From Mobula hypostoma (lineage: Eukaryota), in NCBI RefSeq assembly GCF_963921235.1, contig NC_086097.1, positions 133,674,001 to 133,734,000 on the forward strand: a DNA stretch of 60,000 nucleotides, read 5' to 3'. The notes beneath the pieces are model-generated. The model was not told where the DNA came from, made no database searches, and saw only the letters and a list, made by a program, of their open reading frames with translations. Below, in pieces: positions 3,696 through 59,169 of the stretch. Made by a program: the position numbers and the translations under genes. The stretch's first letter is position 1; each line of letters starts with the position of its first letter.

Positions 3696-4129
3696 TAATT
3701 AAATCCATTATTTTCAGTTAAAGTGTGTATTCCCTCCAGTCTTGACTCCTTCCTTTTAACTAAAGTTGTAATTAAACCTGTCTCTGGTTAACAGCTTCCA
3801 AAGAACTAGAAAAATATGTTTATCAGTGAAGTAATGAAACTACAGGGAAAATCTCATCAAAATGGCATAAAATAAAGACGACTCCACTTTAAAAATTGCG
3901 ATCTTTTTTTGTAAAGAAGCAGTAAAGGCTTTATTGAACTTTCTGTTGTTTTACAGTATGTCCTAATATGTGACCTAAAAATTCACTTTTCCAAGAAAGT
4001 TGGTCTGCAGTTATTAATTGACAAGGCACCCACGAAGCTCACACGGTGATTGTGTTGCAGTTCAGTACAAGGCACCAGACTTCAATGGAATTAAACAGGC
4101 CACAGCTGGAGCATTGTGTACACATCTGA

Positions 4130-4610
4130 TCACCACACTATGGGGAGGACCCGCGGAAGAGATTCATCTGAATATTGCCTGGGGTGGAACATTTCAGTTA
4201 TAAGCAGAGTTTGGATAGGCTGGGTTTCTTTTCCTTTGGGATCTGATTTGAGGTGTGCAAAATTATGTAGGATAGACACTCTATAAATAGCAGGATTTTC
4301 TCCCCATTGCAGAAGTGTCAAAAATTAAGGGACATGCGACTAAGGGAGGAGAGGTTTGGGAGAGATCTGCAACAGAAGTTGATTGGGATTTGGAGTGCAC
4401 TGGATGAGTGGTTGGTGGGAGTTTGCACTGTCACAACATTTAATAAGTATCTAGACAAACACTTGAATTACCAAGGCATAGAGCAAGAGTTCCTAAACCT
4501 TTCTAATGCCATGGACCAATACCATTAAGCAAGGGGTCTGTGGACTCAGGTTGGGAGCACCTAGCATAGAGGGTTAAAGATCATATGCTGGTAAATGGGA
4601 TTAATGTCGA
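4130..4610 (+). mobile_element. Old CR1 LINE 3' fragment, interrupted by a hAT MITE
   Basis: Degenerate CR1 ORF2 C-terminus (FNKYLDKHLNYQGIE). Confidence 0.6.
4484..4563. mobile_element. 80-bp hAT-type MITE
   Basis: Perfect 8-bp TSD gcatagag at 4476-4483 and 4564-4571. Imperfect TIRs caagagttcctaaacc / ggttgggagcaccta, close to CAGGGGTTCCCAACC. Confidence 0.75.
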
Positions 4611-4744
4611 TGATAATTGATCTACAGTTACTATCTACTCTAATCCCAGTGTACTCTTTTATTAGGCTCATATTTTGTCCTTCCAGGAATTACTGCAGAT
4701 TCTGATGAATTCACTTCAGAATGCAATACCAAGAAATTGGTTAC

Positions 4745-5960
4745 AAAGTGCCAGAGTTATAAAGCACAACATCTGTGCCTACCTAGACTTACCCTGTTTG
4801 GCCCACACCCCTCTAAACATTTCTTATCAATGTACCTGTCCAGATATACTTTTAATGTTGTAATTGCATTCACCTCTACGGTTTCCTCGCGCTCTTCTGG
4901 GTGGAGAAGATTGTTCATCGCATCCCCTTTAAATCTTTCCCCGCTCATCTTAAACCTGTGCCCTCTGTTTCAGACTCCCCTACCCTGGGAAAAAGACTGA
5001 CTGTTCACTTTCGGTATGCCCCTCGTGATTTTATAAACCTTTATGAAGTTACCCCTCAGTCTCTTGTGCTCCAGGGAAGACAGTCCCGGTCTATCCAGTC
5101 TCTCCTTCTAACTCAAGCCCTCTAGTCCTGGTAGCATTCTCGTGAAACTCCTCTGCATCCTTTCCAGTTTAATGAAATCCTTCTAGTTGGGCAGCTAGAA
5201 CTCTTAGATGAATCAGAGAGTCACAGCACAGAAACAGGCTCTTCAGCCCATCTAGTCAATGATGAACTATTAATCTGCCAAGTGTCATCGACCTGCACCC
5301 ACACCATAGCCCTCCATACCCCTCCCATCCAGGTACCCTTCTAAATTACTCTTAGATGTTGAAAGTGAACTCAGATCCTCCATTTCCACTGGAAGCTTGT
5401 TCCACACTCTCATCACCCTCCTGTGTTTCCCGTAAACATTTCATATTTCACCTTTCACCCTTAACCTGCTTGCATTTACCCTCATAATTTTGTATACAGT
5501 ACCTCTATTTAATCTCCATTCATTCTCCTACATTCCAGGGAACAGATTCCTAAACTATTCAACCTCTCCCTATAATTCAGGTCCTCAAGTCCTTGCAACA
5601 TCCTTGTAAATTTTCCCTGTACTCTTTCAATCTTATTGACATCTTTCCTCTAAGTTGGTGACCAAGACTGCACACAATTCTTCAAATTAGGCTTCACCAA
5701 TGCCTTATACAACTTCAACATAACATGCCAATTCCTGTATTTAATACTTTGATTTGTGAAGGCAATGTGCCAGAAGCTTTCTTTATGACCTTATCTACCT
5801 GTGACACAGTTAAGCACATTATCACCCAGATCATTGATATAGATAACAAACAGCAATAGACCCAGCGCCAATCCCTGCGGCTCTCCACTAGTCACAGGCC
5901 TCCAGTCAGAGAGGGAGCCATCTACTTCTACTCTCTGGCTTCTCCCATGAAGCCAGTGTC
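4745..5960 (-). mobile_element. Two adjacent decayed CR1 3' fragments (~4745-5185, ~5215-5960)
   Basis: Minus-strand remnants of the CR1 ORF2 C-terminus (LKVYLDRYIDKKCLEGCGPN) and a GVPQG-region remnant near 5870-5900. Confidence 0.7.
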
Positions 5961-6669
5961 TATTACTAGAATATGTGGTGATTGTCCATCATTTCTGACA
6001 ATGACAGGAAACTTGTGCAGGAGAGTTCTTAAAGTAGAAAAGCCGTTCCACTGAAGTCCAGATCCAGTGGTCCGGATAAATAAACAAAAAAACAGGTCAC
6101 AAATTTGATTAGCATAACTGAGAAAATAGTATTGTTTGTTGAGAAGGTGTACTATCCACAGGGAAATTTCTGATCTAGTAGTTTTGCATTTTTAGGTATT
6201 TACTGGTTATCCGTATATTTATTGCTTCAGCTGATGTCACTGCGCTCTGGAACTTATAAAGCATGGCAACATTGGATGTAGGAGCAAGAGCTGGCTTTCT
6301 AATCATCTGAGCCTGATCCACCATTCACCAAAATCATGCTTAAGGACATACTTCCGGGTGTAAAGAAGCCCCATATATTTCAACAAGTTCCAGGCTTCCT
6401 TGTAAACTCACCCTGCACTAAACGGAGTGACACAGAACAGTGAATTCTAACTTTTTGTTCATAGTTTCTCCTGAATTCCTTATTGAATTTATTAGTGGCT
6501 ATCATATATTCATGAGTCCTGGTTCTGTCCGTGCCCTTGAGTGGAAGTGTCTGTTCTGCAGCTATCTTCTCAAACCTTTTCATATTCATAAAGTGCCATC
6601 AGGTCCCACTTCAGTGTTCATTTTTCTAAAGAAATGAGCTTGTCATTCCTGATGGTTAGATCAGGGTGA

Positions 6670-6856
6670 GATGGTGGTGCAGTGGTTTAATTACTAAACT
6701 AATACCCAAAAACGTGAGTTCAAATCCCACTGGAGAAGACGTAAAAAATACATTCAGTTCATGATGTATAATTTAATTTTTAAAATAGCCTAGGAAGTAA
6801 AGGTGATCACAAAACATTTGTTGTAAAATAAAACCCATCTGGTTTATTAATGTCCT
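6670..6856 (+). mobile_element. tRNA-derived SINE, old
   Basis: Box A-like tggtgcagtgg, box B-like gagttcaaatccc, body aaaacccatctggtttattaatgtcc. A related copy lies on the - strand at ~26085-26281. Confidence 0.55.
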
Positions 6857-6874
6857 ATCTTCTTCCTACATGGA

Positions 6875-7625
6875 TTCATAGAGTTACCCAGCATGGAAAC
6901 AGGCTCTTCATCCCAACTTGTCAAAGCCAAACAAGCTGCCTGTCTATACTAGTCCGATCTGCCTGCATGGACCCATATCTCTCTGATCCTTCACCTTTGA
7001 CCCTTGTCCTGTGTCTCTCTATTCATTTCTTATCCATGTACCCATCTAAAGGCCTTTTGAATGCTAAAATTGCACTTTCTCTGGTCGTTCACACCATATG
7101 CACATCACCATCTATCTGGAAACACTTGCCTCTCATATCCCCTTTGAATCTTTCCCCTCTTACCCTAAAACTATGTCCTCTGGTTTTAGACTACTGGACC
7201 CTGAGAAAAAGACAGTGACTATATACCCTGTCTATGTCTTTTGGAGTTTTTAAATATCTGTAAGATCACACCTTAGCCTCCTTCTCTCCAGAGGAAACAA
7301 GCCCAGCCTTTCTGGTCTTCCCTTTTAACTCAAACCATCCAGACAGACAACATTGTGAATCTTTGCTGCACTTCTCTGTCTTCATCACACCCTTGCAATA
7401 GCAGGGCCAACGGAACTGCATACAGTACTCCATGTGCAGCTTAATCAGCCTCACCTCCTATACTCAAAACCTCAGCCGATGAAAGCAAACATACCATTTG
7501 CCTCCTTCACCACTATATCTACCTGTGTTGCCATTTCCAGAGAACTGTGTGCTTCTGCCTCAAAATCTTGCAGTTTATTAACATTACCCAAGGCCAGCCA
7601 TGCACTGTGTATGCCCTGGCCTGTC
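6875..7625 (-). mobile_element. Decayed CR1 3' fragment
   Basis: Minus-strand remnant LHMEYCMQFRWPCYCK, equivalent to the CR1 motif PHLEYCVQFWSP. Confidence 0.7.
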
Positions 7626-11670: not shown

Positions 11671-12351
11671 AATCAAAGACTCCACCCACCCAGACCCCAT
11701 CAGGCAGAAGATATAAAAGCCTGAAAGCACATATCACCAGGCTCAAGGCTAGCTCCCAACCCACTATTGTCAGACTCTTGTACGATAAGATGGACTCTTG
11801 ACCTCACAATCTACCTCATTGTTTGCACTTTATTTTTCACGTGCACTGTAGTTTTTTGGTAGCTTTTATACGATCTTTTTTATTGCTTACCTTATTCTAC
11901 TTCAATGCACCATATAAGTATTTGAACTGTATAAGCAATATGCATGACAAGCTTTCCATTGTATCTTGATACACATGACAATAATAAACCAATGCTATAA
12001 CCAATATATCCAAAACAATGTAGGTCATAGAGGTCATAGTACTGGTCCTTGCAGTAGTTACTGACACAGACTTCTAATCAGGAACGTTTCCTCCCCTTCC
12101 ACCCTCTGCCTCTTTTCATCAATTAATTTTGGATCCAAATAGCCAGCTCACCTTATATCCCATGTGCCTTAATCATCTGAACCAGCCTACCATATGGGAT
12201 ATTGTCAAACACCTTGCTAAAATCCATATAGACAACATTTTAATTGCCTGTTTTTATTTAGGCACTGGAAGTGATAATGATAAGAAGAAAATTGCAGGGG
12301 GATGTTACAATCAGACAAGTATGACAAATATTGAGTAATAGTAGACAGTCA

Positions 12352-14045
12352 ACATAGAATAGTTAGCAGAGGACAGGCCCTTCAGCCCACAATGTTGTGC
12401 TAAACCAGCTAAAAAGCAAATCCAAAACACCCAAACACTAATCCTTCCTACCTACACAATATCTATATCCCTCCATCTTCCCTGCATTTGTGTGCCTATC
12501 TAAACATCTCTTAAAAACCTCCAATGTATTTGCCTTTACCACCATATCAGACTGCGGATTCCAGGCATTCACCTCTATCAGATGTCCCCTCAGCCTCTAC
12601 CACTGCAGAGAAAACAACCCAAGATTACCCAGCCTCTCATGATAGCACATAACCTCTAAACCAGGCAGCATCCTGGTAAACCTCTTCTGCACCCTCTCCA
12701 AAGCCTCAACATCCTTCCTACAGTGGGGCCACCAGAAGTGTGTGTAATACACCAGATGTGGCCTAACTAGAGTTTTGTGAAGTTTCAAAATAACCTCTTG
12801 ACTTTTGAACTCAATGCCTTGATTAATAAAAGTAAGCATTCCTTAAGTCTTCTTCACCACCCCATGAACCTTTGAAGTCACTTTCACAGAGCTATGAACC
12901 TAGTCTCCAAGATCTCAATGCTTGGTAACACTGTTAAGGATCTTGCACTTAGCAGTGTTCTGTCTCCTTGCGTTTGCCCTACTAAGGTGCAACACCCCAC
13001 ATTTATCTAGGTTAAATCTATCTGCTATTTCTCTGCCCATATTTGCAACTGAACTATGTCACACTATATTATTTACTAGTTTCTACACTATCCACAATTA
13101 CACCAATCTTGGAGTCATCCAGAAACCCACCCACCTATATTTTCAACCAAGTCATTAAATACATCACAAACAGCAGCGGTCCCAGTACAGATCCCTGTGG
13201 AACACCATTATTTACAGACCTCCAGCTCAAATAAGTCCTTTCAACCACTACTCTCTGTCTTCTATTCCCAAGCCAGTTGTGAATCCAAACAGCCAATTCA
13301 CCATGGACCCCATGCAACTTAATCTTCTGGATAAGCCTCCAATGAGGGACTTTGTCAAATGCCTTCAAATCCATGTAGACAACATCTACTACTCTACCTT
13401 AATCAGTCTCTCTTATCACCCTGTCAAAAAACTCAATCAAGTTGATAAGTGCCACACAAAGCCATGCTAGTTCTCCCTAATTAGGCCATGGGTTTCCAAA
13501 TACTCATATACTCTATCCCTCTGAATTTTCTCCGGCAACTTTCCTACAATTGACTAGTCTATAGTTCCCAGGATGTTCCCTTGTTCCTTTCTTAAATAGA
13601 GGTACAATATTGGCCACTCACCAGTCCTCTGGGACCTCGCCTGTGCCTAGAGAGGACATGAGGTCAAGGCCCCAGCAATCTTGTCTCTTGCCTCCTTCAA
13701 TAACCTGTGGTAAATCCCATCAGGCCCTGAGAATTGTCCACTTTATTATTCATTAGGATGTCCAATACTTCCTCCTCCTTGACCTCTAAATGCCCTAACA
13801 TATTGATACACTCAGCACTGATCTCCTGGTCCTCCATATCTTTTCCTTGGCAAATACTGAAGCAAAGTATTCATTAAGTACCTCACTCACATTCTCTGCA
13901 TCCAAGCAAGTGTAACCAACTTTATCCATGAGCAGTCCTACCCTCTGCCTAGTTATCCTCTTGCTCTTAATGTATGTATATAATGACTTGGAATTCAGCT
14001 TAATCCTACTTGCCAAGGACTTTTCATGGCAGTGAGCTCTCTCCA
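12352..14045 (-). mobile_element. CR1 LINE fragment (RT region), frameshifted
   Basis: ORF remnants DLKAFDKVPH, GVPQGSVLGP and LVRPHLVYYTHFW; the 3' tail lies at ~12352. Confidence 0.9.
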
Positions 14046-18330: not shown

Positions 18331-18889
18331 CCTTTCCAGAAACTAACCCTATGATGGGTTTTTTTTTGGAGGGGGAGGATGGAAACACTGGGTGAGTCAC
18401 CGTAATCAAGACTGCCCTTCAAGGGCCAGAGTCCTTTTGCAAAAGAAGTCCACTGTCTTTAATGTCTATCCCTTTGTAAGCAGAGAGTCAGGAGTGGATC
18501 ATTTCACTTTTCACACTTAATCCACTATTCAGGAGATAATGTCTGATCTTTATTCTTACTGACGTTTTACTGCACCAATCCATATCCCATGTTTTGTTTT
18601 ACATTCTACAATATATTTAATGTCTAAGCATTAGGTAAACAAATCCAAAGATTTCTTAAGCTCTAGATGGAGAAATTTCAGCTCATCTTTGTCCTGATTT
18701 TCTGACCCCTTAATATGAAATGGCATCCCCTGTTTCTAGATTTTCCATCAGAGTGGTATCAGGGCGATTGTGTTGTGATTGACTTTGAATTGCCCTCTAC
18801 AATGGCAACGTAGCTCACTGTTGCAAATTAGAGATGCCAAATAACTGCTAGAATTGATACTTATAGCCACTGATACTGATTGGCAGGAG

Positions 18890-19955
18890 GCAAAAAGTGA
18901 AAATAAAGGGAGCCTTTTCTGGCTGGCTTCTGGTGACTCGTGATGTTCCACAAGGGTCTGTGTTGGGACCGATACTAATTCTTCTTACGTTTTATGTCAG
19001 TGATTTGGATGATGGAATTGATGGCTTTGTTGCAAAGTTTGCAGATGATATGAAGATAGTTGGAGGAGCAGGTAGTTTTGAGGAAGTAGAGACGCTACAG
19101 AAGGACTTAGACAGATTAGGAAAATGGGCAAAGAAGTAGCAGATGGAATAGGGTGTCGGGAAATGTATGGTCATGCATTTTGGTAGAAGAAATTAAAGGG
19201 TTGACTATTTTCTAAATGGAGAGAAAATACAAAAAAACTGAGGCTCAAAGGGACTTGGGAGTCCTTGTGCAGGATTCCCTAAAGTTTTCTTTATAGATTG
19301 AATCTGTGGTAAGGAAGGCAAATGTGATGTTACCATTTATTTCAGGAGAACTAAACTATAAAAGCAAGGATGTAATGTTGAGACTTTATAAGGTGCTGGT
19401 GAAGCCTTACTTGGAGCATTGTGAGAAGTTTTAGGTCCCTTATCCTAGAAAGGATGTGCCTACACTGGAGAGGGTTCAAAGGGGGCTCTCAGAAATGAAT
19501 CCAGGATTGAACAGCTTGCCACATGAAGAGTGTTTGATGGCTTTGGGTCTGTATTCACTGAAATTCAGATAATGAAGGGTGACCTAATTGAAGCCTATTG
19601 AATGGTGAAAGGTCTTGATAGGGTGGATGGGGACAGGGAGTTTCCTGTGCTAGGAAGGTTTAAGACCTGAGGGCACAGCCCCAGAAAAGAGGGGTGTCCT
19701 TTTGTATGGAGATGATGAAGAATTTCTTTGACCAGAGAATGAATCTGTGGAATTCTTTGCCATAAGCAGCTATGGTGGCCAAGTTTTTAACTTAAGGCAG
19801 AGGTTGATAAATTCATGATTGGTCAGGATATGAAGGGATATGGGGGTAAGACAGGGGACTGGGGCTGAGAGGAAAATTGGATCAGCCATGATGAAATGAC
19901 AGAGCAAACTCGATGGGCCATATGGCCTAATTCTGCTCCTATATCTTATAGTCTT
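18890..19955 (+). mobile_element. 5'-truncated CR1 LINE, decayed
   Basis: DVPQGSVLGP and KFADD motifs; 3' UTR gatcagccatgat...tggcctaattctgctcctatatctta. Confidence 0.9.
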
Positions 19956-19959
19956 AATT

Positions 19960-20979
19960 GTGGGTGAGGGAATTATAATGCTATTAGGCAGGAACTAGGG
20001 ACCATAAATTAGGAACAGATGTACTCCAGGAAATGCACAACAGAAATATAGAGTGTTTTTTAGGGAACTCTTCTGGAATTTCTGGATAGGTTTGTTCCAT
20101 TGAGGCAGGGAAAGGATGGTCAGGTGAAGGAACCATGATTGACAAGAGATGTGGATCATCTAGTCAACCGGCAGAAAGAAGCTTTCTTTAGATTTAACAA
20201 GCAAAGATCAGACAGGGCTGTAGAGAGTTACAAGGTAGCCAAGAAGGTGCTGAAGAATAGACTTACGAGAACTAGGAGGGGCATGAGAAGGCCTTGGTGA
20301 GTAGGATTAAGAAAGCTCCGAAGTGTTCTACATTATGCAAAGAGCAGAAGGGTGGCCATATTGGGGGTAGGACAGATCGGGGATCGTAGAGGAAATGTAC
20401 CTGGGATCCAAGGAGGAATAGGATGTCCTTATTAAATACTTTGTTTCAATATTCACCAGTGAGAGGAACATTGCCTTTTGTGAAGGCACTGTTAAACAGG
20501 ATGATATTCTTGAACATGGTCATGTTAAGAAAGAGAATATGATAGAGCTTTCAAAAAACATTAGGATAGATTAGTCCGGGCCCAAGCGAGTTATACCCCA
20601 GATTATGATGGGAAGTAAGAGAAGAGATCGCTGTTCCTTTGGTGATGATCTTTGAATCCTCACTAGTCACAGAGTTGTACTCCATGATTCAAGCATGGCA
20701 AATGTTGCTCCTTTCTTCAAGAAAGAGAGTAAGGATAACCCTGGGAATTATAGACCATTGAGTATTAATTCAGTGGTGGGAAAGTTATTGGAGAGTTTTC
20801 TTAGAGATAGGAATTATGGGTATTTGGAAAGGCATAGTCTGATTGGGGATAGTCAGCATGGCTTTGTGAGTGGCAGGTCATGCCTTGAGAGCCCGACTGA
20901 ACACCTTGAGAATGTGGGAAAGTATATTGATGAAGGTGGAGCAGGGGATATGGTGTATCTGGATTTTAATAAGGTGTTT
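19960..20979 (+). mobile_element. CR1 copy A, left part (continues at 23260)
   Basis: ANVAPFFKK, GNYRPLS, SQHGF and YLDFNKVF; broken in the middle of the DFxKAFDKVPH motif. Confidence 0.85.
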
Positions 20980-22213
20980 CTTGTACAAAGGCTGTTGAAA
21001 ATCTAGTCAAGAAGAAAAGAAAAGCTTACGAAAGGTTCAAAAAAACTAGGTAATGATAGAGATCAAGAAAATTATAAGGCTAGCAGGAAGGAGTTTAAGA
21101 ATGAAATCAGGAGAGCCAGAAGGGGCCATGAGAAGGCCTTGGTGGACAGGATTAAGGAAAACTCCAAGGCATTCTACAAGTATGTGAAGAGCAAGAGAAT
21201 AAGATGTGAGAGAATAGGACCAATCAAGTGTGACAGTGGAAAAGTGTGTATTGAACCGGAGGAGATAGCGGAGGTATTAATACTTTGCTTCAGTATTCAC
21301 TATGGAAAAGGACCTTGGTGATTGTAGGGATGACTTACAGCAGACTGAAAAGCTTGAGCATATAGACATTAAGGAAGAGGATATGCTGGAGCTTTTGGAA
21401 AGCATCAAGTTGGATAAGTCACCGGGACCAGATGAGATATATCCCAGGCTATTGTGGGAGGTGAGGGAGGAGATTGCTGAGCCTCTGGCAATGATCTTTG
21501 CATCATTATTGGGGATGGGAGAGATTCCGGAGGAATGGAGGGTTGCAGATGTTGTTCCCTTATTCAAGAAAAGGAGTAGAGATAGCCCAGGAAACTATAG
21601 ATCAGTGCATCTTACTTCAGTCGTTGGTAAGTTGATGGAGAAGATCCTGAAAGGCAGGATTTATGAACATTTGAAGAGGTATAATATGATTAGGAATAGT
21701 GATCTGGCTTTGTCAAAGGCGGGTCATGCCTTACGAGGCTGATTGATTTTTTTAAGGATGTAACTAAACACGTTAATGAAGGTAGAGCAGTAGATGTAGT
21801 GTATATGGATTTCAGCAAGGCATTTAATAAGGTACCCCATGCAAGACTTATTGAGAAAGTAAGGAGGCATGGGATCCAAGGGGACCTTGCTTTGAGGATT
21901 CAGAACTGGCTTGTCCGCAGAAGGCAAAGAGTGGTTGTAGATGGGTCATATTCTGCATGAAGGTTGGTGACCAGTGGTGTGCTTCAAGGATCTGTTCTGG
22001 GACCTCTGCTCTTCGCAATTTTTATAAGATGACCTGGATAAGGAAGTGAAGGGATGGGTTAGTAAATTTGCTGATGACACAAAGGTTAAGGGTGTTGTGG
22101 ACAGTGTGGAGGACTGTCAAAGGTTACAGTGGGACATCGATAGGATGCAAACAACACACATAAAAGTTGCTGGTGAACGCAGCAGGCCAGGCAGCATCTC
22201 CAGGAAGAGGTAC

Positions 22214-22249
22214 AGTCGACGTTTCGGGCCGAGACCCTTCGTCAGGACT
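22214..22249 (-). ncRNA. Minimal type-I hammerhead ribozyme motif
   Basis: rc = agtc CTGACGA a gggt-ctcg-gccc GAAA c GTC gact: complete core, stem I agtc/gact, stem II, palindromic loopless stem III (ACGT). Confidence 0.75.
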
Positions 22250-22294
22250 AACTGAAAGAAGAGATAGTAAGAGTTACTAGCTCTTCTTTCAGTT

Positions 22295-22330
22295 AGTCCT
22301 GATGAAGGGTCTCGGCCCGAAACGTCGACC
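22295..22330 (+). ncRNA. Minimal type-I hammerhead ribozyme motif
   Basis: agtc CTGATGA a gggt-ctcg-gccc GAAA c GTC gacc; stem I is reduced to 3 bp. Confidence 0.7.
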
Positions 22331-23259
22331 GTACCTCTTCTTAGAGATGCTGCCTGTCCCGCTGCGTTCACGAGCAACTTTTATGTGTGTGGCTTGAAAT
22401 TCCAGCATCTGCAGATTTCCTCGTTATAGGATACAGAACTGGGTTGAGAAGTGGCGGATGGAGTTCACCCAGATAAATGTGAGGTGGTTCATTTTGGTAG
22501 GTCAAATAAGATGACAAATTGTAGTATTAATGATAAGACTCTTGGCAGTGTGGAGGATCAGAGGGATCTTGAGGTCCATGTCCACAGGACACTCAGAGCT
22601 GGTTCACAGGTTGACTGTGTGGTTAAGAAGGCATACAGTGCATTGACCTTCATCAACCTTGGGATTAAGTTCAAGAGCCGAGAGATAATGTTACAGCTGT
22701 ATAGAACCCTGGTCAGACCCCACGGGGAGTACTGTGCTCATTTCTGGTCACCTCACTACAGGAAGGATGTGGAAACCATAGAAAGGGTGCAGAGAAGATT
22801 TACAAGGATGTTGCCTGGATTAGGGAGCATGCCTTACGAGAATAGGTTGAGTGAACTTGGTCTTTTATTGTTGGAGTGATGGAGGATGAGAGGTGACCTG
22901 ATGGAGGTGTATAAGACGATGAGAGGCATTGATCGTGTGGATAGTCAGAGACTTTCTCCCAGAGCTGAAATAGCTAACATGAGAGGGCATAGTTTTAAGG
23001 TGCTTGGAAGCAGGTACAGAAGGGATGTCAGGGGTATGTTTTTTACAAAGAGAGTGGTGAGTGCGTGGAATGGGCTGCTGGCGACTGTGGTGGAGGCGGA
23101 TACAATAGGGTCTTTTAAGAGGCTCCTGGATAGGTACATGGAGCTTAGAAAAATTGAGGGCTGTGGGTAACCCTGGGTAATTTCTAAAGTAAGTACATGC
23201 TTGGCACAGCATTGTGGGCCGAAGGGCCTGTATTGCGCTGTAGAATTTCTATGTTTCTA

Positions 23260-24408
23260 TGTTTGGTAAGGGTCCGCATGGTAGGCTCATTCCAAAAGTC
23301 TAGAGCCATGGGATTAATGGAAACTTGACTGTGTGGATTTAGGTTCAGAATTGGGTTGCCTACAGAGGGCAGAGGATGGTTGTAGATGAAGAGTATTCTG
23401 CCTGGAGGCCAGTGACCAGTGGTGTTCTGTAGGGATCTGTTCTGGCACCTCTGCTCTTTGTGATTTTCATAAATCACTTGGATGAGGAGGTGGAATGGTG
23501 GGATAGTAAGTTTGCAGGTGACACAAAGATTGGTAGTGTTGTGGAATATGTGGAGGTTTGTTGTAGGTTGCAACAGGACATTCACGGGATGCAGGGTTGG
23601 GCTGAGAAGTGGCAGATGGAGCTCAATCCAGAAAAGTGTGAAGTGATCCATTTTGGAATGTTGAATTTGAGGGCAGAAACAGGGATAATGGCGGGATTCT
23701 TGGCAGTGTGGAGGGACAGAGGGCTCTTGGGGTCCACATCCATAGATCCCTCAGAGTTGCCGTGCAAGTTGATAGGTCTGTTAGGAAGATTTATGGTGTG
23801 CTGGACTTCACTAGTCAGGGGATTGAGTTCAAGATATGCCAGGTAATGTTACAGTTCTATAAAATCCTGTGTAGAACACACTTAGATCTTTGTGTTCATT
23901 TCTTGTTGTCTCAGAATAGAAAGGATGTGGAAGCTTTAGAGAGGGTGCAGAGGAGATTTAACTGTATGCTGTCTGGACTGGAGGACATGTCCTATGAAGA
24001 TAGGTTGAGTGAGCTCGCGGTTTTCTCTTTGGAGCAAAGGAGGATGAGAGGTGACTTGATAGAGATGTATAGGGTTATAAGAAGCATAGATAAAGTGGAT
24101 AACCAGAGACTTTTTTCCCAGGGCAGAAATGGCTAATACAAAGGGGTACAATTTTAAGGTGGTTGGGTGAAAGTATTAAGGTAAGTTCTTTACTTAGAGA
24201 ATGGTGGGTGTGTGGAACACCCTGCCAGGGGTGGTAGTAGAGGCAGGTATATTAGAGGCATTTAAAAAACTCTTAGATATGCACATGAATGATAGAAAAA
24301 TTGAAGGTTATGTCAGAGGTAAGGGTTGAATTGATCTAACAGTAGGTTAATATATCTGGCTCAACATCGCTGGCCAAAGGGCCTGTACTGTGCAGTAATG
24401 TTCTGTGA
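23260..24408 (+). mobile_element. CR1 copy A, right part
   Basis: Resumes as tttggtaagggtccgcatggtaggctcatt (F-GKGPHGRLI), continuing the motif broken at 20979; KFAGDT; 3' end at ~24408. Confidence 0.85.
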
Positions 24409-29814: not shown

Positions 29815-30670
29815 AGCACGAGAAAATTTACAGATGCTGGAAATCCAAATCAAAACACAAAATGCAGGAGGAAATTAGTAGGTTGGGCAGCATCTATGGA
29901 AAAGCATAAACAGTTGATGTTTCACGCCGGGACCCTTCATCAGGACCGGAAAGGAAGGAGGACAAAATCAGATAAGAAAGTGGGGGGAGGGGAGGAGCAA
30001 GTACAAGATGGGAAGTGATTGGTGATCGTATGGATAATCAGAGTCTTTTTCCCAGGGCTGAAATGGCTAACATGAGAGGGCACAGATTTAAGGTGCTTTG
30101 AAGTAGGTACAGTGGAGATGTCAGGGGTAAGTTTTCTATGCAGAGAGTGGTGAGTGCATGGAATGGGCTGCCAGCGACGGTGGTGGAGGCGGATACGATA
30201 GGGTCTTCTAAGAGACTCCTGGATAGGCACATGGAGCTTAGAAGAATAGAGGGCTTGGGTAACCCTAGGTAATTTCTAAAGTAAGTACATGTTCGGCACA
30301 GCATTGTGGGCCGAAGGGCCTGTATTGTGCTGTAGTTTTTCTATGTTTCTATGTTAAACCCGGAGGGGGGGAAGGGGTGAAGTAAAGAGCTGGGAAGTTG
30401 ACTGGTAAAAGAGATAAAGGGCTGGAGAAGGGGGAATCTGATAGGAGAGGACAGAAGACCATGGAGGAAGCGAAAGTGGGAGGAGCACCAGAGGGAGGTA
30501 ATGGGAAGGTAAGAAAAGAAGGTGTGAAAGAGAAACAAGAACGGGGAATGGTGAAGGAGAGGAGGGGGGAATTACCAGAAGTTTGAAAAATTGATGTTCA
30601 TGCCATCAGCTTGGTGGCTACCCAGACAGAATATAAGATGTTGCTCCTCCAACATGAGTGTCAGTACATG
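29815..30670 (-). mobile_element. Penelope-like element 3' end, interrupted by a CR1 3' fragment
   Basis: GIY-YIG tail at 30590-30665, same family as 28148-28612; hammerhead-like rc ggtcctgatgaagggtcccggcgtgaaacatcaac near 29913-29947. Confidence 0.75.
30023..30355 (+). mobile_element. CR1 3' end, same subfamily as copy B
   Basis: Closely matches 22930-23262 and ends in ttctatgtttctatgtt. Confidence 0.9.
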
Positions 30671-32209: not shown

Positions 32210-32777
32210 TCCGGGTTACGAACACCTGACTTACATACGGATTATAGATACAGACACACATCTGGGAGAATGGGTGGGGAAGATTTACTGTCTGTTGCAG
32301 AGCTGCAGGCATTTTCTGCCATGTGGGAATCAATTGACAGCTGAGTTAAATGCCCTGGTTTAACTGCACGTTGTCCTTGTTTGCCCAGGGTTTTTATTTA
32401 AATATATTTCCAGGCAGCTGCATTTCCAACTTGTGATTTGTTCCAGCTATAACAGTTCTCAGGAACTGTACCTGCATTTCGAATGAATAACCTCCACAAC
32501 TGTCTGAGAAATCTGGAGGTTCACCACCCTCTGTGAGATGAAATTTCTATGTACCTCGGTTTTAAGTGAGGTATATCCTGAATTCAAGACTGCTCCATTT
32601 GTGAAAAGATATTGACATCTACCCTGTCAAGCTCCCGTACAATTTTATATGTTTCCCTAAGATCACTGACATTCATCCACTCTCCGGAGAATACAGGCCC
32701 AATCTGTTTAGCCTCTCCTAAAACTCTCATCCCAGAACGAGTGAGGTAAATCTCCTTTAGACAACCTCCAACACTAC

Positions 32778-35679: not shown

Positions 35680-36037
35680 TAATTAGGTTATTACTACCAC
35701 ATGTACCAAGATACAGGAAAAAACTTTTGCTTATGTGCCACCCAGATAGATCATTCCAAAGATGTAGCACAAAGGATAATAGAATGCAGAATATAGTGTC
35801 ATATTTACAGTGCTGGTTGATAAATGAAGTGCAAGGGCCATGACAGGGTAGACTGAAAGATCAAGAGCTTATCTTTATTGTGGAGTCTGATAACAGCAAG
35901 GATAGAAGCTGTGCTTGAGCTTGGCTCTTGGGCTTTTGTACTTTCTGCCCAATAGCAGAGAGGAGAAGAGAGAATGACTGGGATGAGAAGGGTCCTTGAC
36001 TATGTTGGCTGCTTACTGAAAGCAGCAGGAAGTATAG
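35680..36037 (-). mobile_element. Rex1/Babar-type 3' fragment, host of the full-length CR1 (continues at 40385-40450)
   Basis: ...gggtccttgactatgttggctgc...gaagtatag | cagagtaaatgg...catgatagactgg is collinear with uninterrupted copies at 10790-10890 and 55005-55100. Confidence 0.7.
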
Positions 36038-36131
36038 AAACATAGAAACATAGAAAATAGGTGCAGGAGTAGGCCATTCGGCCCTTCGAGCCTGCACCGC
36101 CATTTATTATGATCATGGCTGATCATCCAAC
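36035..36131 (-). other. CR1 3' UTR stem-loop and 8-nt microsatellite tail
   Basis: 8-bp stem ggtgcagg/cctgcacc (36060-36067 with 36091-36098) enclosing ggcc-gaat-ggcc; tail tagaaaca repeats at 36035-36057. Confidence 0.8.
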
Positions 36132-39100
36132 TCAGAACCCAGCCTTCCCTCCATACCCCGTGACCCCTGTAGCCACAAGGGCCATATCTAACTTCCTTTT
36201 AAACATAGCTAATGAACTGGCCTCAACAGTTTGCTGTGGCAGAGAATTCCACAGATTCACCACTCTCTGTGTGAAGAAGTTTTTCCTAATCTCGGTCCTA
36301 AAAGGCTTCCCCTCTATCCTCAAACTGTGACCCCTCGTTCTAGACCTCCCCAACATCGGGAACAATCTTCCCGCATCTAGCCTGTCCAATCCCTTTAGGA
36401 TCTTATACGTTTCAATCAGATCCCCCCTCAATCTTCTAAATTCCAACGAGTACAAGCCCAGTTCATCCAGTCTTTCTTCATATGAAAGACCTGCCATCCC
36501 AGGAATCAATCTGGTGAACCTTCTTTGTACTCCCTCTATGGCAAGGATGTCTTTCCTCAGATTAGGGGACCAAAACTGCACACAATACTCCAGGTGTGGT
36601 CTCACCAAGGCCTTGTACAACTGCAGTAGTACCTCCCTGCTCCTGTACTCGAATCCTCTCGCTATAAATGCCAGCATACCGTTCGCCTTTTTCACCGCCT
36701 GCTGTACCTGCATGCCCACTTTCAATGACTGGTGTATAATGACACCCAGGTCTCGTTGCACCTCCCCTTTTCCTAATCGGCCACCATTCAGATAATAATC
36801 TGTTTTCCTATTTTTGCCACCAAAGTGGATAACTTCACATTTATCCACATTAAATTGCATCTGCCATGAGTTTGCCCACTCACCCAACCTATCCAAGTCA
36901 CCCTGCATCCTCTTAGCATCCTCCTCACTGCTAACACTGCCGCCCAGCTTCGTGTCATCCGCAAACTTGGAGATGCTGCATTTAATTCCCTCATCCAAGT
37001 CATTAATATATATTGTAAACAACTGGGGTCCCAGCACTGAGCCTTGCGGTACCCCACTAGTCACCGCCTGCCATTCTGAAAAGGTCCCGTTTATTCCCAC
37101 TCTTTGCTTCCTGTCTGCTAACCAATTCTCCACCCACACCAATACCTTACCCCCAATACCATGTGCTTTAAGTTTGCACACTAATCTCCTGTGTGGGACC
37201 TTGTCAAAAGCCTTTTGAAAATCCAAATATACCACATCCACTGATTCTCCCCTATCCACTCTACTAGTTACATCCTCAAAAAATTCTATGAGATTCGTCA
37301 GACATGATTTTCCTTTCACAAATCCATGCTGACTTTGTCCGATCATTTCACCGCTTTCCAAATGTGCTGTTATCACATCCTTGATAACTGACTCCAGCAG
37401 TTTCCCCACCACCGACGTTAGGCTAACCGGCCTATAATTCCCCGGTTTCTCTCTCCCTCCTTTTTTAAAAAGTGGGGTTACATTAGCCACCCTCCAATCC
37501 TCAGGAACTAGTCCAGAATCTAACGAGTTTTGAAAAATTATCACTAATGCATCCACTATTTCTTGGGCCACTTCCTTAAGCACTCTGGGATGCAGACCAT
37601 CTGGCCCTGGGGATTTATCTGCCTTCAATCCCTTCAATTTACCTAACACCACTTCCCTACTAACATGTATTTCGCTCAGTTCCTCCATCTCACTGGACCC
37701 TCTGTCCCTTACTATTTCTGGAAGATTATTTATGTCCTCCTTAGTGAAGACAGAACCAAAGTAATTATTCAATTGGTCTGCCATGTCCTTGCTCCCCATA
37801 ATCAATTCACCTGTTTCTGTTTGCAGGGGACCTACATTTGTCTTTATCAGTCTTTTCCTTTTTACATATCTATAAAAGCTTTTACAGTCCGTTTTTATGT
37901 TCTCTGCCAGTTTTCTCTCATAATCTTTTTTCCCCTTCCTAATTAAGCCCTTTGTCCTCCTCTGCTGAACTCTGAATTTCTCCCAGTCCTCAGGTGAGCC
38001 ACTTTCTCTGGCTAATTTGTATGCTACTTCTTTGGAATTGATACTATCCCTAATTTCTCTTGTCAGCCACGGGTGCACTACCTTCCTTGATTTATTCTTT
38101 TGCCAAACTGGGATGAACAATTGTTGTAGTTCATCCATGCAACCTTTAAATGCCTGCCATTGCATATCCACCGTCAATCCTTGAAGTGTCATTTGCCAGT
38201 CTATCTTAGCTAATTCATGTCTCATACCTTCAAAGTTACCCCTCTTTAAGTTCAGAACCTTTGTTTCTGAATTAACTACGTCACTCTCCATGTTAATGAA
38301 GAATTCCACCATATTATGGTCACTCTTACCCAAGGGGCCTCTCACGACAAGATCGCTAATTAACCCTTCCTCATTGCTCAAAACCCAGTCCAGAATAGCC
38401 TGCTCTCTAGTCGGTTCCTCGACATGTTGGTTCAAAAAACCATCCCGCATACATTCCAAGAAATCCTCTTCCTCAGCACCTTTACCAATTTGGTTCACCC
38501 AGTCTACATGTAGATTGAAGTCACCCATTATAACTGCTGTTCCTTTATTGCACACATTTCTAATTTCTTGTTTAATACCATCTCCGACCTCACTACTACT
38601 GTTAGGTGGCCTGTACACAACTCCCAGCAGCGTCTTCTGCCCCTTAGTGTTACGCAGCTCTACCCATATCGATTCCACATCTTCCCGGCTTATGTCCTTC
38701 CTTTCTATTGCGTTAATCTCTTTTTTAACCAGCAACGCCACCCCACCTCCCCTTCCTTCATGTCTATCCCTCCTGAATATTGAATATCCCTGAACGTTGA
38801 GCTCCCATCCCTGGTCACCCTGGAGCCATGTCTCTGTGATCCCAACTATATCATAATCATTAATAACAATCTGCACTTTCAATTCATCCACCTTATTACG
38901 AATGCTCCTTGCATTGACACATAAAGCCTTCAGGCGCTCTTTTACAACTCTCTTAGCCCTTTTTAATGCTTGCCCTGGATTTGTCGGCCTGCCACTTTTA
39001 CTTTTCCCCTTTGTACTTTTTGCTTCTACGCTCACTTTACACCCCTCTGTCTCTCTGCACTGGTTCCCATCCCTCTGTTGTGAACTAACCTCCTCACACC

Positions 39101-39152
39101 TAGCCGCTTTAATTTGATTCCCACCCCCCAACCATTCTAGTTTAAAGTCACC
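36132..39152 (-). CDS. CR1 ORF2: APE endonuclease plus reverse transcriptase (frame open from 39152, no N-terminal ATG)
   Basis: APE motifs VNARSI, ITETW, YRPP, MGDFN, SDH. RT motifs PGPDG, NYRPVSLTS, QHGF, DFQKAFD, GVPQGSVLGP, FADD. No stops over about 1000 codons. Confidence 0.95.
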   Translation of the reverse strand, partial: GDFKLEWLGGGNQIKAARCEEVSSQQRDGNQCRETEGCKVSVEAKSTKGKSKSGRPTNPGQALKRAKRVVKERLKALCVNARSIRNKVDELKVQIVINDYDIVGITETWLQGDQGWELNVQGYSIFRRDRHEGRGGGVALLVKKEINAIERKDISREDVESIWVELRNTKGQKTLLGVVYRPPNSSSEVGDGIKQEIRNVCNKGTAVIMGDFNLHVDWVNQIGKGAEEEDFLECMRDGFLNQHVEEPTREQAILDWVLSNEEGLISDLVVRGPLGKSDHNMVEFFINMESDVVNSETKVLNLKRGNFEGMRHELAKIDWQMTLQGLTVDMQWQAFKGCMDELQQLFIPVWQKNKSRKVVHPWLTREIRDSINSKEVAYKLARESGSPEDWEKFRVQQRRTKGLIRKGKKDYERKLAENIKTDCKSFYRYVKRKRLIKTNVGPLQTETGELIMGSKDMADQLNNYFGSVFTKEDINNLPEIVRDRGSSEMEELSEIHVSREVVLGKLKGLKADKSPGPDGLHPRVLKEVAQEIVDALVIIFQNSLDSGLVPEDWRVANVTPLFKKGGREKPGNYRPVSLTSVVGKLLESVIKDVITAHLESGEMIGQSQHGFVKGKSCLTNLIEFFEDVTSRVDRGESVDVVYLDFQKAFDKVPHRRLVCKLKAHGIGGKVLVWVENWLADRKQRVGINGTFSEWQAVTSGVPQGSVLGPQLFTIYINDLDEGIKCSISKFADDTKLGGSVSSEEDAKRMQGDLDRLGEWANSWQMQFNVDKCEVIHFGGKNRKTDYYLNGGRLGKGEVQRDLGVIIHQSLKVGMQVQQAVKKANGMLAFIARGFEYRSREVLLQLYKALVRPHLEYCVQFWSPNLRKDILAIEGVQRRFTRLIPGMAGLSYEERLDELGLYSLEFRRLRGDLIETYKILKGLDRLDAGRLFPMLGRSRTRGHSLRIEGKPFRTEIRKNFFTQRVVNLWNSLPQQTVEASSLAMFKRKLDMALVATGVTGYGGKAGF

Positions 39153-40072
39153 TCAGTAGCCCCCGCTAATCTCCCTGCCAGGATATTGGTCCCCCTAGGA
39201 TTTAAGTGTAACCCGTCCTTTTTGTACAGGTCACACCTACGCCAAAAGAGGTCCCAATGATCCAAAAACTTGAATCCCTGCCCCCTGCTCCAATCCCTCA
39301 GCCACGCATTTATCCTCCACCTCATCGCATTCCTACTCTCACTGTCGCGTGGCACAGGCAGTAATCCCGAGATTACTACCTTTGCGGTCCTTTTTCTCAA
39401 CTCCCTTCCTAGCTCCCTATATTCTTCTTTCAGGACCTCATCCCTTTTCCTACCTATGTCATTGGTACCTATATGTACCAGGACCTCTGGCTCTTCACCC
39501 TCCCACTTCAGGATATCTTGGACACGATCAGAAATATCCCGGACCCTGGCACCAGGGAGGCAAACTACCATCCGAGTCTCTGGACTGCGTCCACAGAATC
39601 GCCTATCTGACCCCCTTACTATCGAGTCCCCTATCACAACTGCCCTCCTCTTCCTTGCCCTACCCTTCTGAGCTACAGGGCCAGACTCTGTGCCGGAGGC
39701 AGGGCCACTGTCGCTTCCCCCGGGTAAGCTGTCCCCCCCAACAGTACTCAAACAGGAGTACCTGTTGTTAAGGGGCACAGCCGCCGGGGTACTCCTCATC
39801 ACCTGCCTTTTCCCCTTCCCTCTCCTAACCGTGACCCACTTGTCTGCCTCCCGTGGCCCCGGCGTGACCACCTGCCTTCCACTCCTCTCTATCACCTCCT
39901 CGCTCTCCCTGACCAGACGAAGGTCATCGAGCTGCAGCTCCAGTTCCGTAACGCGGTCCCTTAGGAGCTGCATCTCGATGCACTTGGCGCAGATGTAGAC
40001 GTCCGGGAGGCTTGGAGACTCCAGGGCCTCCCACATCCGACACCGAGAACAGCAAACTGCCCTCACAGTCAT
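39137..40072 (-). CDS. CR1 ORF1: zinc finger, leucine zipper and SGNH esterase, 311 aa
   Basis: ATG at 40072; C-X2-C-X16-C-X2-C; heptad LRDRVTELELQLDDL; SGNH blocks GDS, PGA, GTND and DGLH. Confidence 0.93.
   Translation of the reverse strand: MTVRAVCCSRCRMWEALESPSLPDVYICAKCIEMQLLRDRVTELELQLDDLRLVRESEEVIERSGRQVVTPGPREADKWVTVRRGKGKRQVMRSTPAAVPLNNRYSCLSTVGGDSLPGGSDSGPASGTESGPVAQKGRARKRRAVVIGDSIVRGSDRRFCGRSPETRMVVCLPGARVRDISDRVQDILKWEGEEPEVLVHIGTNDIGRKRDEVLKEEYRELGRELRKRTAKVVISGLLPVPRDSESRNAMRWRINAWLRDWSRGQGFKFLDHWDLFWRRCDLYKKDGLHLNPRGTNILAGRLAGATEVTLN
39140..39146 (-). other. Candidate -1 ribosomal frameshift slippery site T TTA AAC
   Basis: Minus strand reads acT TTA AAC TAG in the ORF1 frame; the -1 frame (TTT AAA CTA GAA TGG TTG...) is ORF2. 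Confidence 0.65.
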
Positions 40073-47764: not shown

Positions 47765-48410
47765 TCAAACAGTGTGGGGAAGTGCATAGTCATGTTCTTT
47801 GATAGAAGGAATAAAAGTGTAGACCATTTTCTAAACCAGAGAGCAAATTCAGAACCCAGTAGTGCAAAGGGGCTCGGGAGTCCTGGTGCAGAATTCACTC
47901 AAGGGTAACTTGCAGATTGAGTTGGCGGTAAGGAAGGCAAATGCAATGTTTGCAATCTTATTCAGGAGACTAGAATATAAAGGTGACGATGTAGTGTTTT
48001 AGAAGGCATTGGTCAGCACATATTGGAAATACTGTGAGCAGTTTTAAGTATATCTAAGAAAGGGTGTACTGGCAATAGGGAGAGCTCAGAAGCCTTATGA
48101 GAATGATCCCAGGAAAGAACAGGTTAACTCGTGAGGAGCCTCTAATGGCTCTGGGCCCGGATTCACTAGAGTTTAGAAGAATGAAGGAGTATCTCATTGA
48201 ACCTAATGAATATTCAAAGGTCAAGATAGAGCGGATGTGGAAAAGATGTATCCACTAGTAAGAGAGTCTCGGACTAGAGGATACACCTCATAATACATGC
48301 CTTTAGAAGCAGGAGAATAGGGTTGGTTGAGGGAAAATAAATCACTCATGATTGAATGGTTGAGCATACTTAATGGATCAAAAAGCCTAATTTTGCTCCT
48401 ATGTCATGGT
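47765..48410 (+). mobile_element. Decayed CR1 3' fragment
   Basis: Collinear with 19150-19950. Confidence 0.75.
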
Positions 48411-53282: not shown

Positions 53283-54593
53283 ATTAGACAGAGGCAGCAT
53301 GGATTCAGAAAGGGCAGGTCCTGTTTGACAAACTTACTGGAGTTCTTTGAGGACATAATGAGTGCAGTGGATAGAGGGGAACAGGTGGATGTCGTATACT
53401 TTGATTTCCAGAAGGTGTTCGATAAGGTGCTGCACAAAAGACTTATCAATAAGATACGGATGCATGGAGTCGGAGGAAGTGTATTGGCATGGATAGTGGA
53501 TTGGTTAACCGATAGAAGGCAGAGAGTTGGTATAAACGGGTGTTTCTCCAGTTGGCAGTCTGTGGTGAGTGGGGTGCCTAGGGGTCAGTGCTGGGCCCGC
53601 AGCTGTTTACCATTTACATTGATGATTTGGAAGAGGGGACTGAGTGTAGCGTAGCAAAATTTGCTGATGACACTCAGTGGAAAAGCAAACCATACAGAGA
53701 ATGCGGAGAGTCTGCGGAGGGATATAGATAGGTTAAGTGAGTGGGCCAAGGTCTGGCAGATGGAATACAATGTTGGTAAATGCAAGATCATCCACTTTGG
53801 AAGGAATAATAGAAGAGCAGATTATTAGTTAAATGGTGAAAGATTACAGCATGCTGTTGCGCAGAGGGACTTGGGAGTGTTTGTGCATGAATTTCAAAAA
53901 GTTGGCTTGCAGGTGCAACAGGTTATTAAGAAAGCAAACAGAATGTTGGCCTTCATTACTAGAGGGAGTGAAATCAAGGGCAGGGAGGTCATGCTGCAAC
54001 TATACAGGGCACTGGTGAGACCGCACCTGGAGTACTGTGTGCAGTTCTGGTCTTCATACTTGAGGAAGGATATTCTGGCTTTGGAGGCAGAGCAGAGGAA
54101 GTTCACCAGATTGATTACAGAGATGAAGGGGTTAACCTATGAGGAGAGATTGAGTCGCCTGGGACTACACTCTCTGGAAATCAGAAGAATGAGAGGGGAT
54201 CTTAGAGAAACATACAAAATTTTGAAAGGGATAGATAAGATAGAAGTAGGAAAGTTGTTTCCATTGGTAGGTGAGATGAGAACTAGGGGACATAGCCTCA
54301 AGATTCAGGGGAGAAGATTTAGGATGGCGATGAGGAGAAACTGTTTTTCCCAGAGAGTGGTGAATCTGTGGAATTCTCTGCCCAGGGAAGCAGTTGAGGC
54401 TTCTTCACTAAATATATTTAAGATACAGTTAGATAGATTTTTACATAGTAGGGGAATTAAGGGTTATGGGGGAAAGGCAGGAAGATGGAGCTGAGTTTAC
54501 AGACAGATCAGCCATGATCTTATTGAATGGCAGGGCAGGCTCGATGGGCCGGATGGCCTACTCCTGCTCCTATTTCTTATGTTCTTATGTTCT
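53283..54593 (+). mobile_element. 5'-truncated CR1 LINE with a few frameshifts
   Basis: QHGF, DFQKVFDKV, KFADD and LVRPHLEYCVQFW; stop at 54494; 3' stem-loop and ttcttatgttcttatgttc tail. Confidence 0.92.
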
Positions 54594-57825: not shown

Positions 57826-58019
57826 TTATTGTGCCTATACTTGTATTGAGCCTTTATTTATGAACTTATTTTTCACTTTAACGAAGAACATGTCATACCT
57901 ACCTATAGAAACATACTATACCAAATATATCTATGATGCATCTTGCCCTATCATTTTTGATCTACAAAATTTTGCTTAATAAAATGATTTCCAGAAATGT
58001 ATCCCTAAACTAAATACAG

Positions 58020-58670
58020 ACTGGCTTGCTTTTATTAGTCGAGGTATTGGGCTCAAAGGTCAGGAGGTTATGTTGCAACTTTATAAAACTCTGGTTAGGC
58101 CACATCTGTAGTACTATGCACAGTTCTGGTTGCCCCACTATAAGAAGGATGTTGAGACTTTGGAGACGGTGCAGAAGAGGTTTACCATGATGCTGCCTGA
58201 TTTAGAGGGCATGTGCTATCGTGAGAGGCTGGATAAACTTGGGGTTTTTTTTCTCTCTGGAGTGTCGGGCACTGAGGGGAGATGTGATAGGGGTGTACAA
58301 GATTATGAGAGGTATAGGTAGAGTGGAAAGAAAGCATCTGTTTCCCAGGGTGAAATGTCTAATACCAGAGGATACACACACACTGAAGGTGAGAGGGGGT
58401 AGGTTCAAAGAGGATGTGAGGGTTAAGATTTTTACTCAGAGAGTCATGGACGCCTAGAATGCACTGCCTGGCGTAGTGGTAGAGGCAAATACATTAGAGG
58501 CTTTTAAGAGACATTTGGATAGGCACATGGGTGTAAGGAAGATGGAGGAATGAGGACATGATGTAGATAGGAGGGATTAGTGTTTGGGTGTTTTTCATTT
58601 GCTTTTTAGCTGGTTTGGCACAACGCTGTAGGCCAAATGGCCTGTTCCTGTGCTGTACTCCTCTAATGTA
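58020..58670 (+). mobile_element. CR1 3' fragment
   Basis: PHYKKDVETLETVQKRFT and LRGDVIGVYKIMRG; same subfamily as 12352-12840. Confidence 0.85.
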
Positions 58671-59169
58671 CTCAGTGACAGGATGTACCACACTGCCACA
58701 GGATCACAAAAACAAAAAAAATAGGAACAGAGGCTATTCAGGCATTCAATCCCTCCTATGATTTTGATAAAATTATGGCTACATCAATTTTCCTCATCTA
58801 CTTTCTCACTATAGACTTCGTTCCCTTACTGATTTAAAATTCCAGCGTTGAATATATTCAAGAATTTTATCTCCAATTTTTTTGAACAAAGAATTCCCAA
58901 AGACTCTCAATACTGTGAGAGAAAATATTTTTCCTCATCTCCATTTTAAAAGGGCACCCCTTCATTCTAAGACTATATCCTCAGGCCCTAGAATCTCCCA
59001 TGTCACGCCAAAATTTAAGCGATGAGACCTTTTGAGATTTGCAGATATTTAAATGAGATTATCTCGTTTTTCTAAATTTCATAAGGAAAATGTTGGTGTG
59101 TTTATTTTCTGAGGAGGTTAAGGGAGTTTTAATCCTCTCATCAAACACTACCCAGCTTCTACAGATGTA

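Follow-up and report, generated by a model that had tools for sequence, protein, structure and literature searches.

In a 60,000-nt window of the Mobula hypostoma genome (GCF_963921235.1, NC_086097.1, positions 133,674,001–133,734,000 of the forward strand), a full-length copy of a CR1-type long interspersed nuclear element (LINE) lies on the reverse strand, from position 40386 to about 36033. CR1 ranks among the dominant LINEs in birds, reptiles, and cartilaginous fish. How the second open reading frame (ORF2) of LINEs is translated has been studied chiefly in L1 and SART1, with reinitiation as the model. Our sequence analysis indicates that ORF2 of this CR1 element is likely made by −1 programmed ribosomal frameshifting, as a fusion of ORF1, a linker, an APE endonuclease, and a reverse transcriptase (RT), which would comprise 1313 amino acids (aa) here. 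Judged by its conservation, the junction between the two frames is a real, deeply conserved cis signal. All positions below are those of the window, and all features of the element lie on its reverse strand.

The ORF1/ORF2 junction and its conservation

ORF1 (39137–40072) encodes 311 aa with Cys motifs, a coiled-coil-like stretch, and an SGNH/GDSL esterase (Lipase_GDSL_2, E 2.9e-16), and ends in EVTLN*. Its best PDB match is 4c1b, 'ORF1-encoded protein' (E 8.6e-46), and its closest named homologs are ray proteins. The 3' end of ORF1 reads GTG ACT TTA AAC TAG and thereby contains the heptamer U UUA AAC (39140–39146), the predicted −1 shift site, with the stop TAG (39137–39139) immediately 3' of it. 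U UUA AAC is the slippery site of coronaviruses, and a stop directly follows the heptamer of Rous sarcoma virus as well. The ORF2 frame, with APE endonuclease and RT matches (Pfam PF03372, PF14529, and PF00078), runs over 1006 codons from its opening at 39152, past a TGA, to 36132. It is the −1 frame relative to ORF1 and overlaps it by 16 nt. The first ATG of ORF2, at 38528, is codon 209 counted stop-to-stop, or codon 202 from a TTG at 39131, and falls within the Pfam Exo_endo_phos match (residues 93–279). From the shift site to the APE Asn (38915) extends a polar, variable linker (38916–39140), which is open in the window copy: there are no stops between heptamer and APE Asn in the −1 frame, and six and eight in the other two frames.

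A preliminary description of this DNA had proposed the −1 shift. Its coordinates for heptamer and stop, the phase of the heptamer, the 16-nt overlap, the position of the first ATG inside the APE domain, and the predicted fusion length (1313 aa, i.e. 311 + 1002) all proved correct, and the heptamer, its phase, a run of six Gs downstream, and conservation support the proposal at the level of sequence. Most ribosomes would stop at the ORF1 stop and release the ORF1 protein (ORF1p), while a minority would slip, with tRNA-Leu and tRNA-Asn re-pairing in tandem (UUA AAC to UUU AAA), and continue on CUA GAA UGG. The outcome would be a high ratio of ORF1p to fusion, as in gag/gag-pol. By analogy, a G-tract-binding factor, helped by the adjoining stop, may serve as stimulator.

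For comparison, 19 representative junctions were compiled, seven from the M. hypostoma genome, where other families were gathered with three divergent ORF1 queries, and 12 from sauropsid-like loci in metagenome contigs, whose best named homolog was a hummingbird protein for eight loci and a snake protein for four. Intact copies were chosen. The families are related, so that these are not 19 independent trials. The other 23 of the 35 metagenome loci comprised 21 that fell short of the ORF1 end or were unplaceable there, L041, with a junction that reads TTTTAAAA, and L061, which keeps the heptamer and has AAG in place of the stop. The preliminary description had named a non-conserved heptamer as grounds for rejecting frameshifting; TTTAAAC was found exactly in all 19 representatives, and is kept across families and classes. 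A stop came next in 18 of them (TAG in 10, TAA in six, TGA in two; TGC in the remaining one). Among the metagenome loci reaching the junction, TTTAAAC was present in 13 of 14, and single copies of M. hypostoma families carried the exact heptamer plus stop in 19/20 (family D), 15/20 (family C), and 10/20 cases (the old family B). Searches for junction DNA of other animals gave none in viral contigs and one short fragment in genome contigs.

Two representatives, L032 and L056, were placed by motif since indels break their ORF1 frame; 17 rows are in register. The codon before TTA always ended in T in these rows (GCT, GGT, ACT, CGT, GAT, TGT, or TCT). The penultimate Leu was always TTA, which accounts for 12% of the Leu codons in these ORFs, and Asn was always AAC (37% expected). 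The elements' own codon usage predicts a T-ending codon followed by TTA and AAC for only some 1.1% of all ends of the x-Leu-Asn type (0.011 per family). As a control, two near-invariant Gly residues and the Leu of a His-Leu pair, 20–25 codons upstream, use three to four codons each; synonymous sites therefore had time to change. The median pairwise identity over the 83 nt before the heptamer was 0.46.

Past the heptamer, a G box of the form GGGGG-NN-GGG (39120–39129) follows after a 10-nt spacer and is a candidate stimulator. Among 17 scoreable representatives, G was present at +11 to +15 and at +19 in every one and at +18 and +20 in 15, with +4 to +10 and +16 to +17 variable. Because three of these G positions fall on third letters of ORF2 codons, the constraint acts on nucleotides. 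The G-rich tract had been placed 6 nt past the heptamer by the preliminary description, which holds for the window copy; the conserved part is the GGGGG after the 10-nt spacer.

The junction was also followed at the protein level. Named ORF1 homologs include proteins of rays, sharks, coelacanth, frogs, turtles, squamates, and a hummingbird, and the C-terminus was LN in 73 of the 77 homologs whose end falls 20–32 aa past DGxH. When 50% cluster representatives were searched with a profile, distant families joined the set, with the ends QGN, SGN, AGN, SKN, EN, SN, and FFR/FFH. Of 110 de-duplicated ends, 86 were in Asn, and Leu, Gly, or Lys preceded it in 79 of these; codons of the form XXA specify only Leu, Gly, Lys, and Pro. 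Before LN, residues with pyrimidine-ending codons only occurred 17 times and those with purine-ending codons only once (background 0.15 vs 0.16), the pyrimidine-type residue changing 13 times on the tree, and before GN the residue was Gln in 9 of 11 de-duplicated ends. The Fisher p of 2e-6 for this LN/GN contrast is overstated, as the GN ends are mostly in one clade. Both patterns match what U UUA AAC and G GGA AAC, respectively, would need, and the distant QGN, SKN, and FF ends would fit other X XXY YYZ heptamers, these swaps being read from protein only. The distant KN group possibly uses A AAA AAC without an adjoining stop.

Some individual homologs deserve mention. P0185, P0196, P0203, P0219, P0245, P0254, and P0256 have KN at the esterase end, followed by 2–14 codons, and P0217 carries GFLG, compatible with U UUU UUA. 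A CR1 ORF1 deposited as a Pseudomonas aeruginosa protein (P0022) and a CR1-like fragment in a 506-nt Providencia contig (L066) look like host DNA contamination. Ray gene models (P0121–P0124, P0026, and P0064) fuse CR1 ORF1 pieces to host genes, e.g. hydroxyacid oxidase 2 and ribosomal protein S24, and are probably annotation artefacts.

G run, reading phase, and origin of the linker

The window copy has an out-of-frame ATG at 39135, which opens an 8-codon ORF (MVGGWESN*, 39109–39135) and provides no ORF2 start as long as the G run has six letters. A run of five, as the preliminary description pointed out, would place this ATG in frame with ORF2 and favour stop-start reinitiation. The junction was identical in all 30 sister copies fetched; because that search favours look-alikes, a separate pattern count was made. 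Allowing 4–8 free letters over the G run, the pattern matched 4,204 genomic junctions (control pattern 0), and among the first 100 matches listed the run had six letters in 95, five in three, and seven in two. Five-letter runs occurred in 67 copies genome-wide, by a pattern that differs from the former by two flanking letters. The 20 of these copies examined were 87–98% identical to the window, differed from each other by 20–106 substitutions, and spanned the chimeric subfamily described below as well as parental ones, and 10 were closed before the APE motif. The pattern accords with sporadic slips at a homopolymer and not with a single lineage. An assembly error at the run, or a five-letter stop-start lineage, was rejected on the 67 scattered copies against 4,204 junction matches. 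In contigs of four sequencing runs, whose RNA origin is guessed, no indel above a 10% cut-off was found at the G run, a result that does not bear on expression. Six letters are hence the family form, and a stop-start via 39135 is not favoured: as the run is six long, with five-letter copies scattered and half of those examined closed, this is a replicating family without an in-frame ATG near the stop. G homopolymers elsewhere are length-unstable among copies and break the phase of ORF1 or ORF2, namely just before the heptamer in family D (L112, L116, L107, and L108) and in the G box of family B (L082–L084).

The APE Asn could be located in 12 representatives. In all of them it was in the −1 frame, 40–111 codons from the heptamer with no stop between, and in four no ATG preceded it. 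Natural proteins with a broken frame (P0036, P0057, P0121, and P0271), including one of the distant clade, read FKL across the junction. A search for longer homologs, which was a weak one, returned five proteins and among them none with ORF1 and ORF2 in a single ORF.

The window family is a recombinant: it unites ORF1 and the junction of one CR1 family with the ORF2 of a second, the two parts meeting at the G-box region. Compared with family E (L138, L142, and L145), it is 71–72% identical in the esterase part and 91–93% in ORF2. The switch in identity places the recombination point at about 39078–39080, next to a relic G box of the ORF2-donor family that the alignment reveals at 39077–39066 (whole feature 39066–39080). 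Six copies of the ORF1-donor type (L151–L153 and L158–L160) lose their match at 39078–39083, and both parent types are present in the genome. The join lengthened the sequence by 54 nt, and 27 nt were subsequently lost by deletion, with the −1 phase kept both times; this in-frame linker deletion, at 38955–38962, marks the youngest subfamily relative to its 95–96% identical sisters L140 and L144. Family E has a TAATG stop-start. The chimeric window family lost it, yet belongs to a group of about 4,200 junction copies.

Stimulator and competing explanations

The stimulator is the least certain step of the explanation. Given frameshifting, we put the case for a protein bound to an unstructured G box at slightly less than an even chance. 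We favour such a protein, with slow decoding at the adjacent stop as a help, and rank lower both a two-tier G-quadruplex and a long-range helix that escaped detection. Two-tier quadruplexes were predicted in 5 of 16 sequences only. Among 10 elements scanned, no long-range partner of the G box was common to all. A C-rich site within ORF1, some 650 nt upstream, ranked among the top five partners in six of the 10, but overlaps Pro/Leu codons, and only in the window element and family E did a pairing site in the 3' untranslated region (UTR) rank as high. A local hairpin was set aside, as none is conserved.

The widest reading of these data is that the esterase-ORF1 CR1 LINEs of jawed vertebrates, together with the distant sister clade, make their RT as a gag-pol-like fusion by an ancient −1 shift, stimulated by a factor on the G box 10 nt downstream and not by RNA structure. 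We regard it as tentative, with chances somewhat below even. Several observations weigh against frameshifting or its wide occurrence. No conserved hairpin was found and the canonical stem-loop at 5–9 nt is missing (pseudoknots being beyond the folding program), with minimum free energy z-scores of −1.9 to +1.3 in 31 of 32 folds. The GN, KN, and FF ends are concentrated in one distant clade and known from protein alone, and 24 of the 110 de-duplicated homologs are without a C-terminal N. In decayed copies, the APE motif was in the −1 frame in only 14/20 (family D), 10/20 (family C), and 3/20 cases (family B), and in another frame in 4/20 of family B; the representatives, by comparison, had been chosen for being intact. 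In addition, a review argues that the functions of LINE ORF1 need separation from the ORF2 protein (ORF2p) (PMC3708506). Frameshifting would still yield free ORF1p in excess.

The remaining objections concern the start codon and bear on termination-reinitiation as in L1 and SART1, which we consider unlikely. Ribosomes would then begin anew in the −1 frame, from an ATG or a non-AUG codon (TTG at 39131 here), and the conserved letters would form a reinitiation signal. An in-frame ATG overlapping or adjoining the ORF1 stop is absent in the window family and present in 7 of the 19 representatives (family E, as TAATG, L031, L032, L034, L037, L052, and L062), at most five codons from the heptamer; it stands at codon 4–5 and forms TAATG overlaps in two of the seven. 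That several related families have an in-frame ATG beside the stop had escaped the preliminary description. Such a nearby ATG is commoner than chance suggests, although part of this may be inherited, and codon 5 of families D and F is TTG. SART1 employs UAAUG (PMC3708506), and the ATG of L1 ORF2 is dispensable, being replaceable by any sense codon (PMC1965478), so that reinitiation may proceed even where an ATG is missing. The ATG-bearing lineages may rely on it, alone or beside frameshifting. Reinitiation leaves unexplained, however, the in-phase X XXY YYZ at synonymous sites and the apparent swaps to other slippery heptamers. Moreover, the candidate start is not conserved, as ATG, TTG, TGG, TCG, GAC, GAA, and AGT occupy the same place, and the sole nearby ATG of the window family is out of frame and would divert restarting ribosomes.

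Two further explanations would place the signal elsewhere than in translation. G tracts act as splicing enhancers, and TTTAAACTAG ends in AG in 10 of the 19 representatives, so that the junction motif could be a splicing or promoter signal for a separate ORF2 RNA, spliced or internally started. However, 8 of the 19 have AA or GA in place of the AG, and an internal start would still be without an ATG before the APE motifs in four of 12. A spliced ORF2, which the preliminary description had named as speaking against frameshifting, gained no support either, with GT-AG ends at none of the 15 joints listed of 55 in the run contigs, a weak test given the guessed RNA origin. We hold a separate RNA to be highly improbable. 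Still less probable, and largely refuted, is the explanation that LN* is kept for the sake of the protein, in the last helix of the esterase, with its codons merely inherited. L and N are near-invariant in the ORF1 alignment and the families share ancestry, but other invariant residues diverged synonymously, TTA makes up so small a share of Leu codons, Gly or Lys takes the place of Leu in distant families, and the G box, outside ORF1, is likewise fixed at third positions.

The element and its relation to known systems

Octamer-type 3' repeats and frequent 5' truncation are hallmarks of CR1. The element is of CR1 type by its ORF2 with APE and RT, its esterase ORF1, its octamer-type 3' repeats, and the frequent 5' truncation of its copies. 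The 3' UTR (36033–36131) ends in TTTCTATG repeats, and the 3' ends of relatives are TTCTATGA. Of 30 sister copies, nine share the 5' end at 40386 and 21 are 5'-truncated, and sister copies were 99.6–99.95% identical; 35 of 40 scored genomic copies gave an exact score over 401 nt. These values, with the shared 5' end and the 3' repeats, indicate a very young, high-copy family. An esterase-type ORF1 is known in this group of LINEs (PMC3708506). Older, 5'-truncated CR1-like RT fragments lie on both strands of the window (4091–7591, 12111–14028, 18876–24311, 30024–30260, 32489–32756, 47771–48287, 53283–54482, and 57992–59094), none of them with an ORF1 match.

Among the titles and abstracts listed in the literature searches, we found no report of CR1 frameshifting, although the CR1 descriptions of the 1990s and Repbase may already note the overlap or propose a shift; the part covered of a 2016 frameshifting review makes no mention of CR1 (PMC5009743). 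Frameshifting in non-LTR (long terminal repeat) elements is said to be known already. A −1 shift is stated to be required for ORF2 of Dictyostelium TRE5-A and TRE3-A (PMC5911963), and a shift for HeT-A gag (PMC5009743). TRE5-A and TRE3-A are, like CR1, APE-type LINEs, but of a different clade and with an unrelated ORF1, and no animal-wide signal is described for them in the part consulted. If CR1 frameshifts, its enzyme would be an ORF1-fused protein, which would alter the picture of particle, cis preference, and SINE (short interspersed element) mobilisation. The annotated starts of CR1 ORF2 would then be wrong, and host factors that counter frameshifting, for instance Shiftless, could possibly target CR1.

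L1 and SART1 resemble CR1 in their bicistronic LINE RNA and low ORF2 output, and some CR1 families have a SART1-like TAATG. They use reinitiation or initiation resembling that at an internal ribosome entry site, and make free ORF2p (PMC3708506, PMC3592465, PMC1965478), whereas ORF2 of CR1 overlaps ORF1 through a slippery heptamer and has a long, variable linker.

Canonical −1 sites follow the consensus X_XXY_YYZ, with stimulators starting 5–9 nt downstream (PMC3542737). As at the viral and LTR-element sites (PMC3542737, PMC5009743), an in-phase heptamer lies at the end of a structural ORF in CR1, with the enzyme ORF at −1. The CR1 junction thus shares the heptamer and the −1 open frame, but is without a stem-loop found at 5–9 nt, again with pseudoknots beyond the folding program; for want of this local structure, we do not class it with the canonical sites that structure stimulates. 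The host also differs, being a non-LTR retrotransposon without a protease, so that the fusion would probably stay uncut.

The closest anatomical parallel is found in an arterivirus. The nsp2 signal of this virus, PRRSV, consists of the C-rich CCCANCUCC 10 nt downstream, bound by nsp1beta/PCBP (PMC7618472). Both have a short unstructured box after a 10-nt spacer in place of RNA structure, a resemblance in anatomy only: the CR1 box is G-rich instead of C-rich, only a −1 product is expected, and the binding protein is hypothetical. Stimulation by quadruplexes is known from synthetic constructs, with natural use not known at the time of the 2016 review (PMC5009743). The CR1 signal is about 30 nt long. 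A G-box stimulator that is conserved and free of structure would represent a type of frameshift signal new for eukaryotes. If the G-box reading is true, CR1 would hold a structure-free, regulatable signal native to animal genomes and kept since the divergence of sharks and birds, which would either mirror the C-rich signal of arteriviruses or be a natural case of stimulation by a G-quadruplex.

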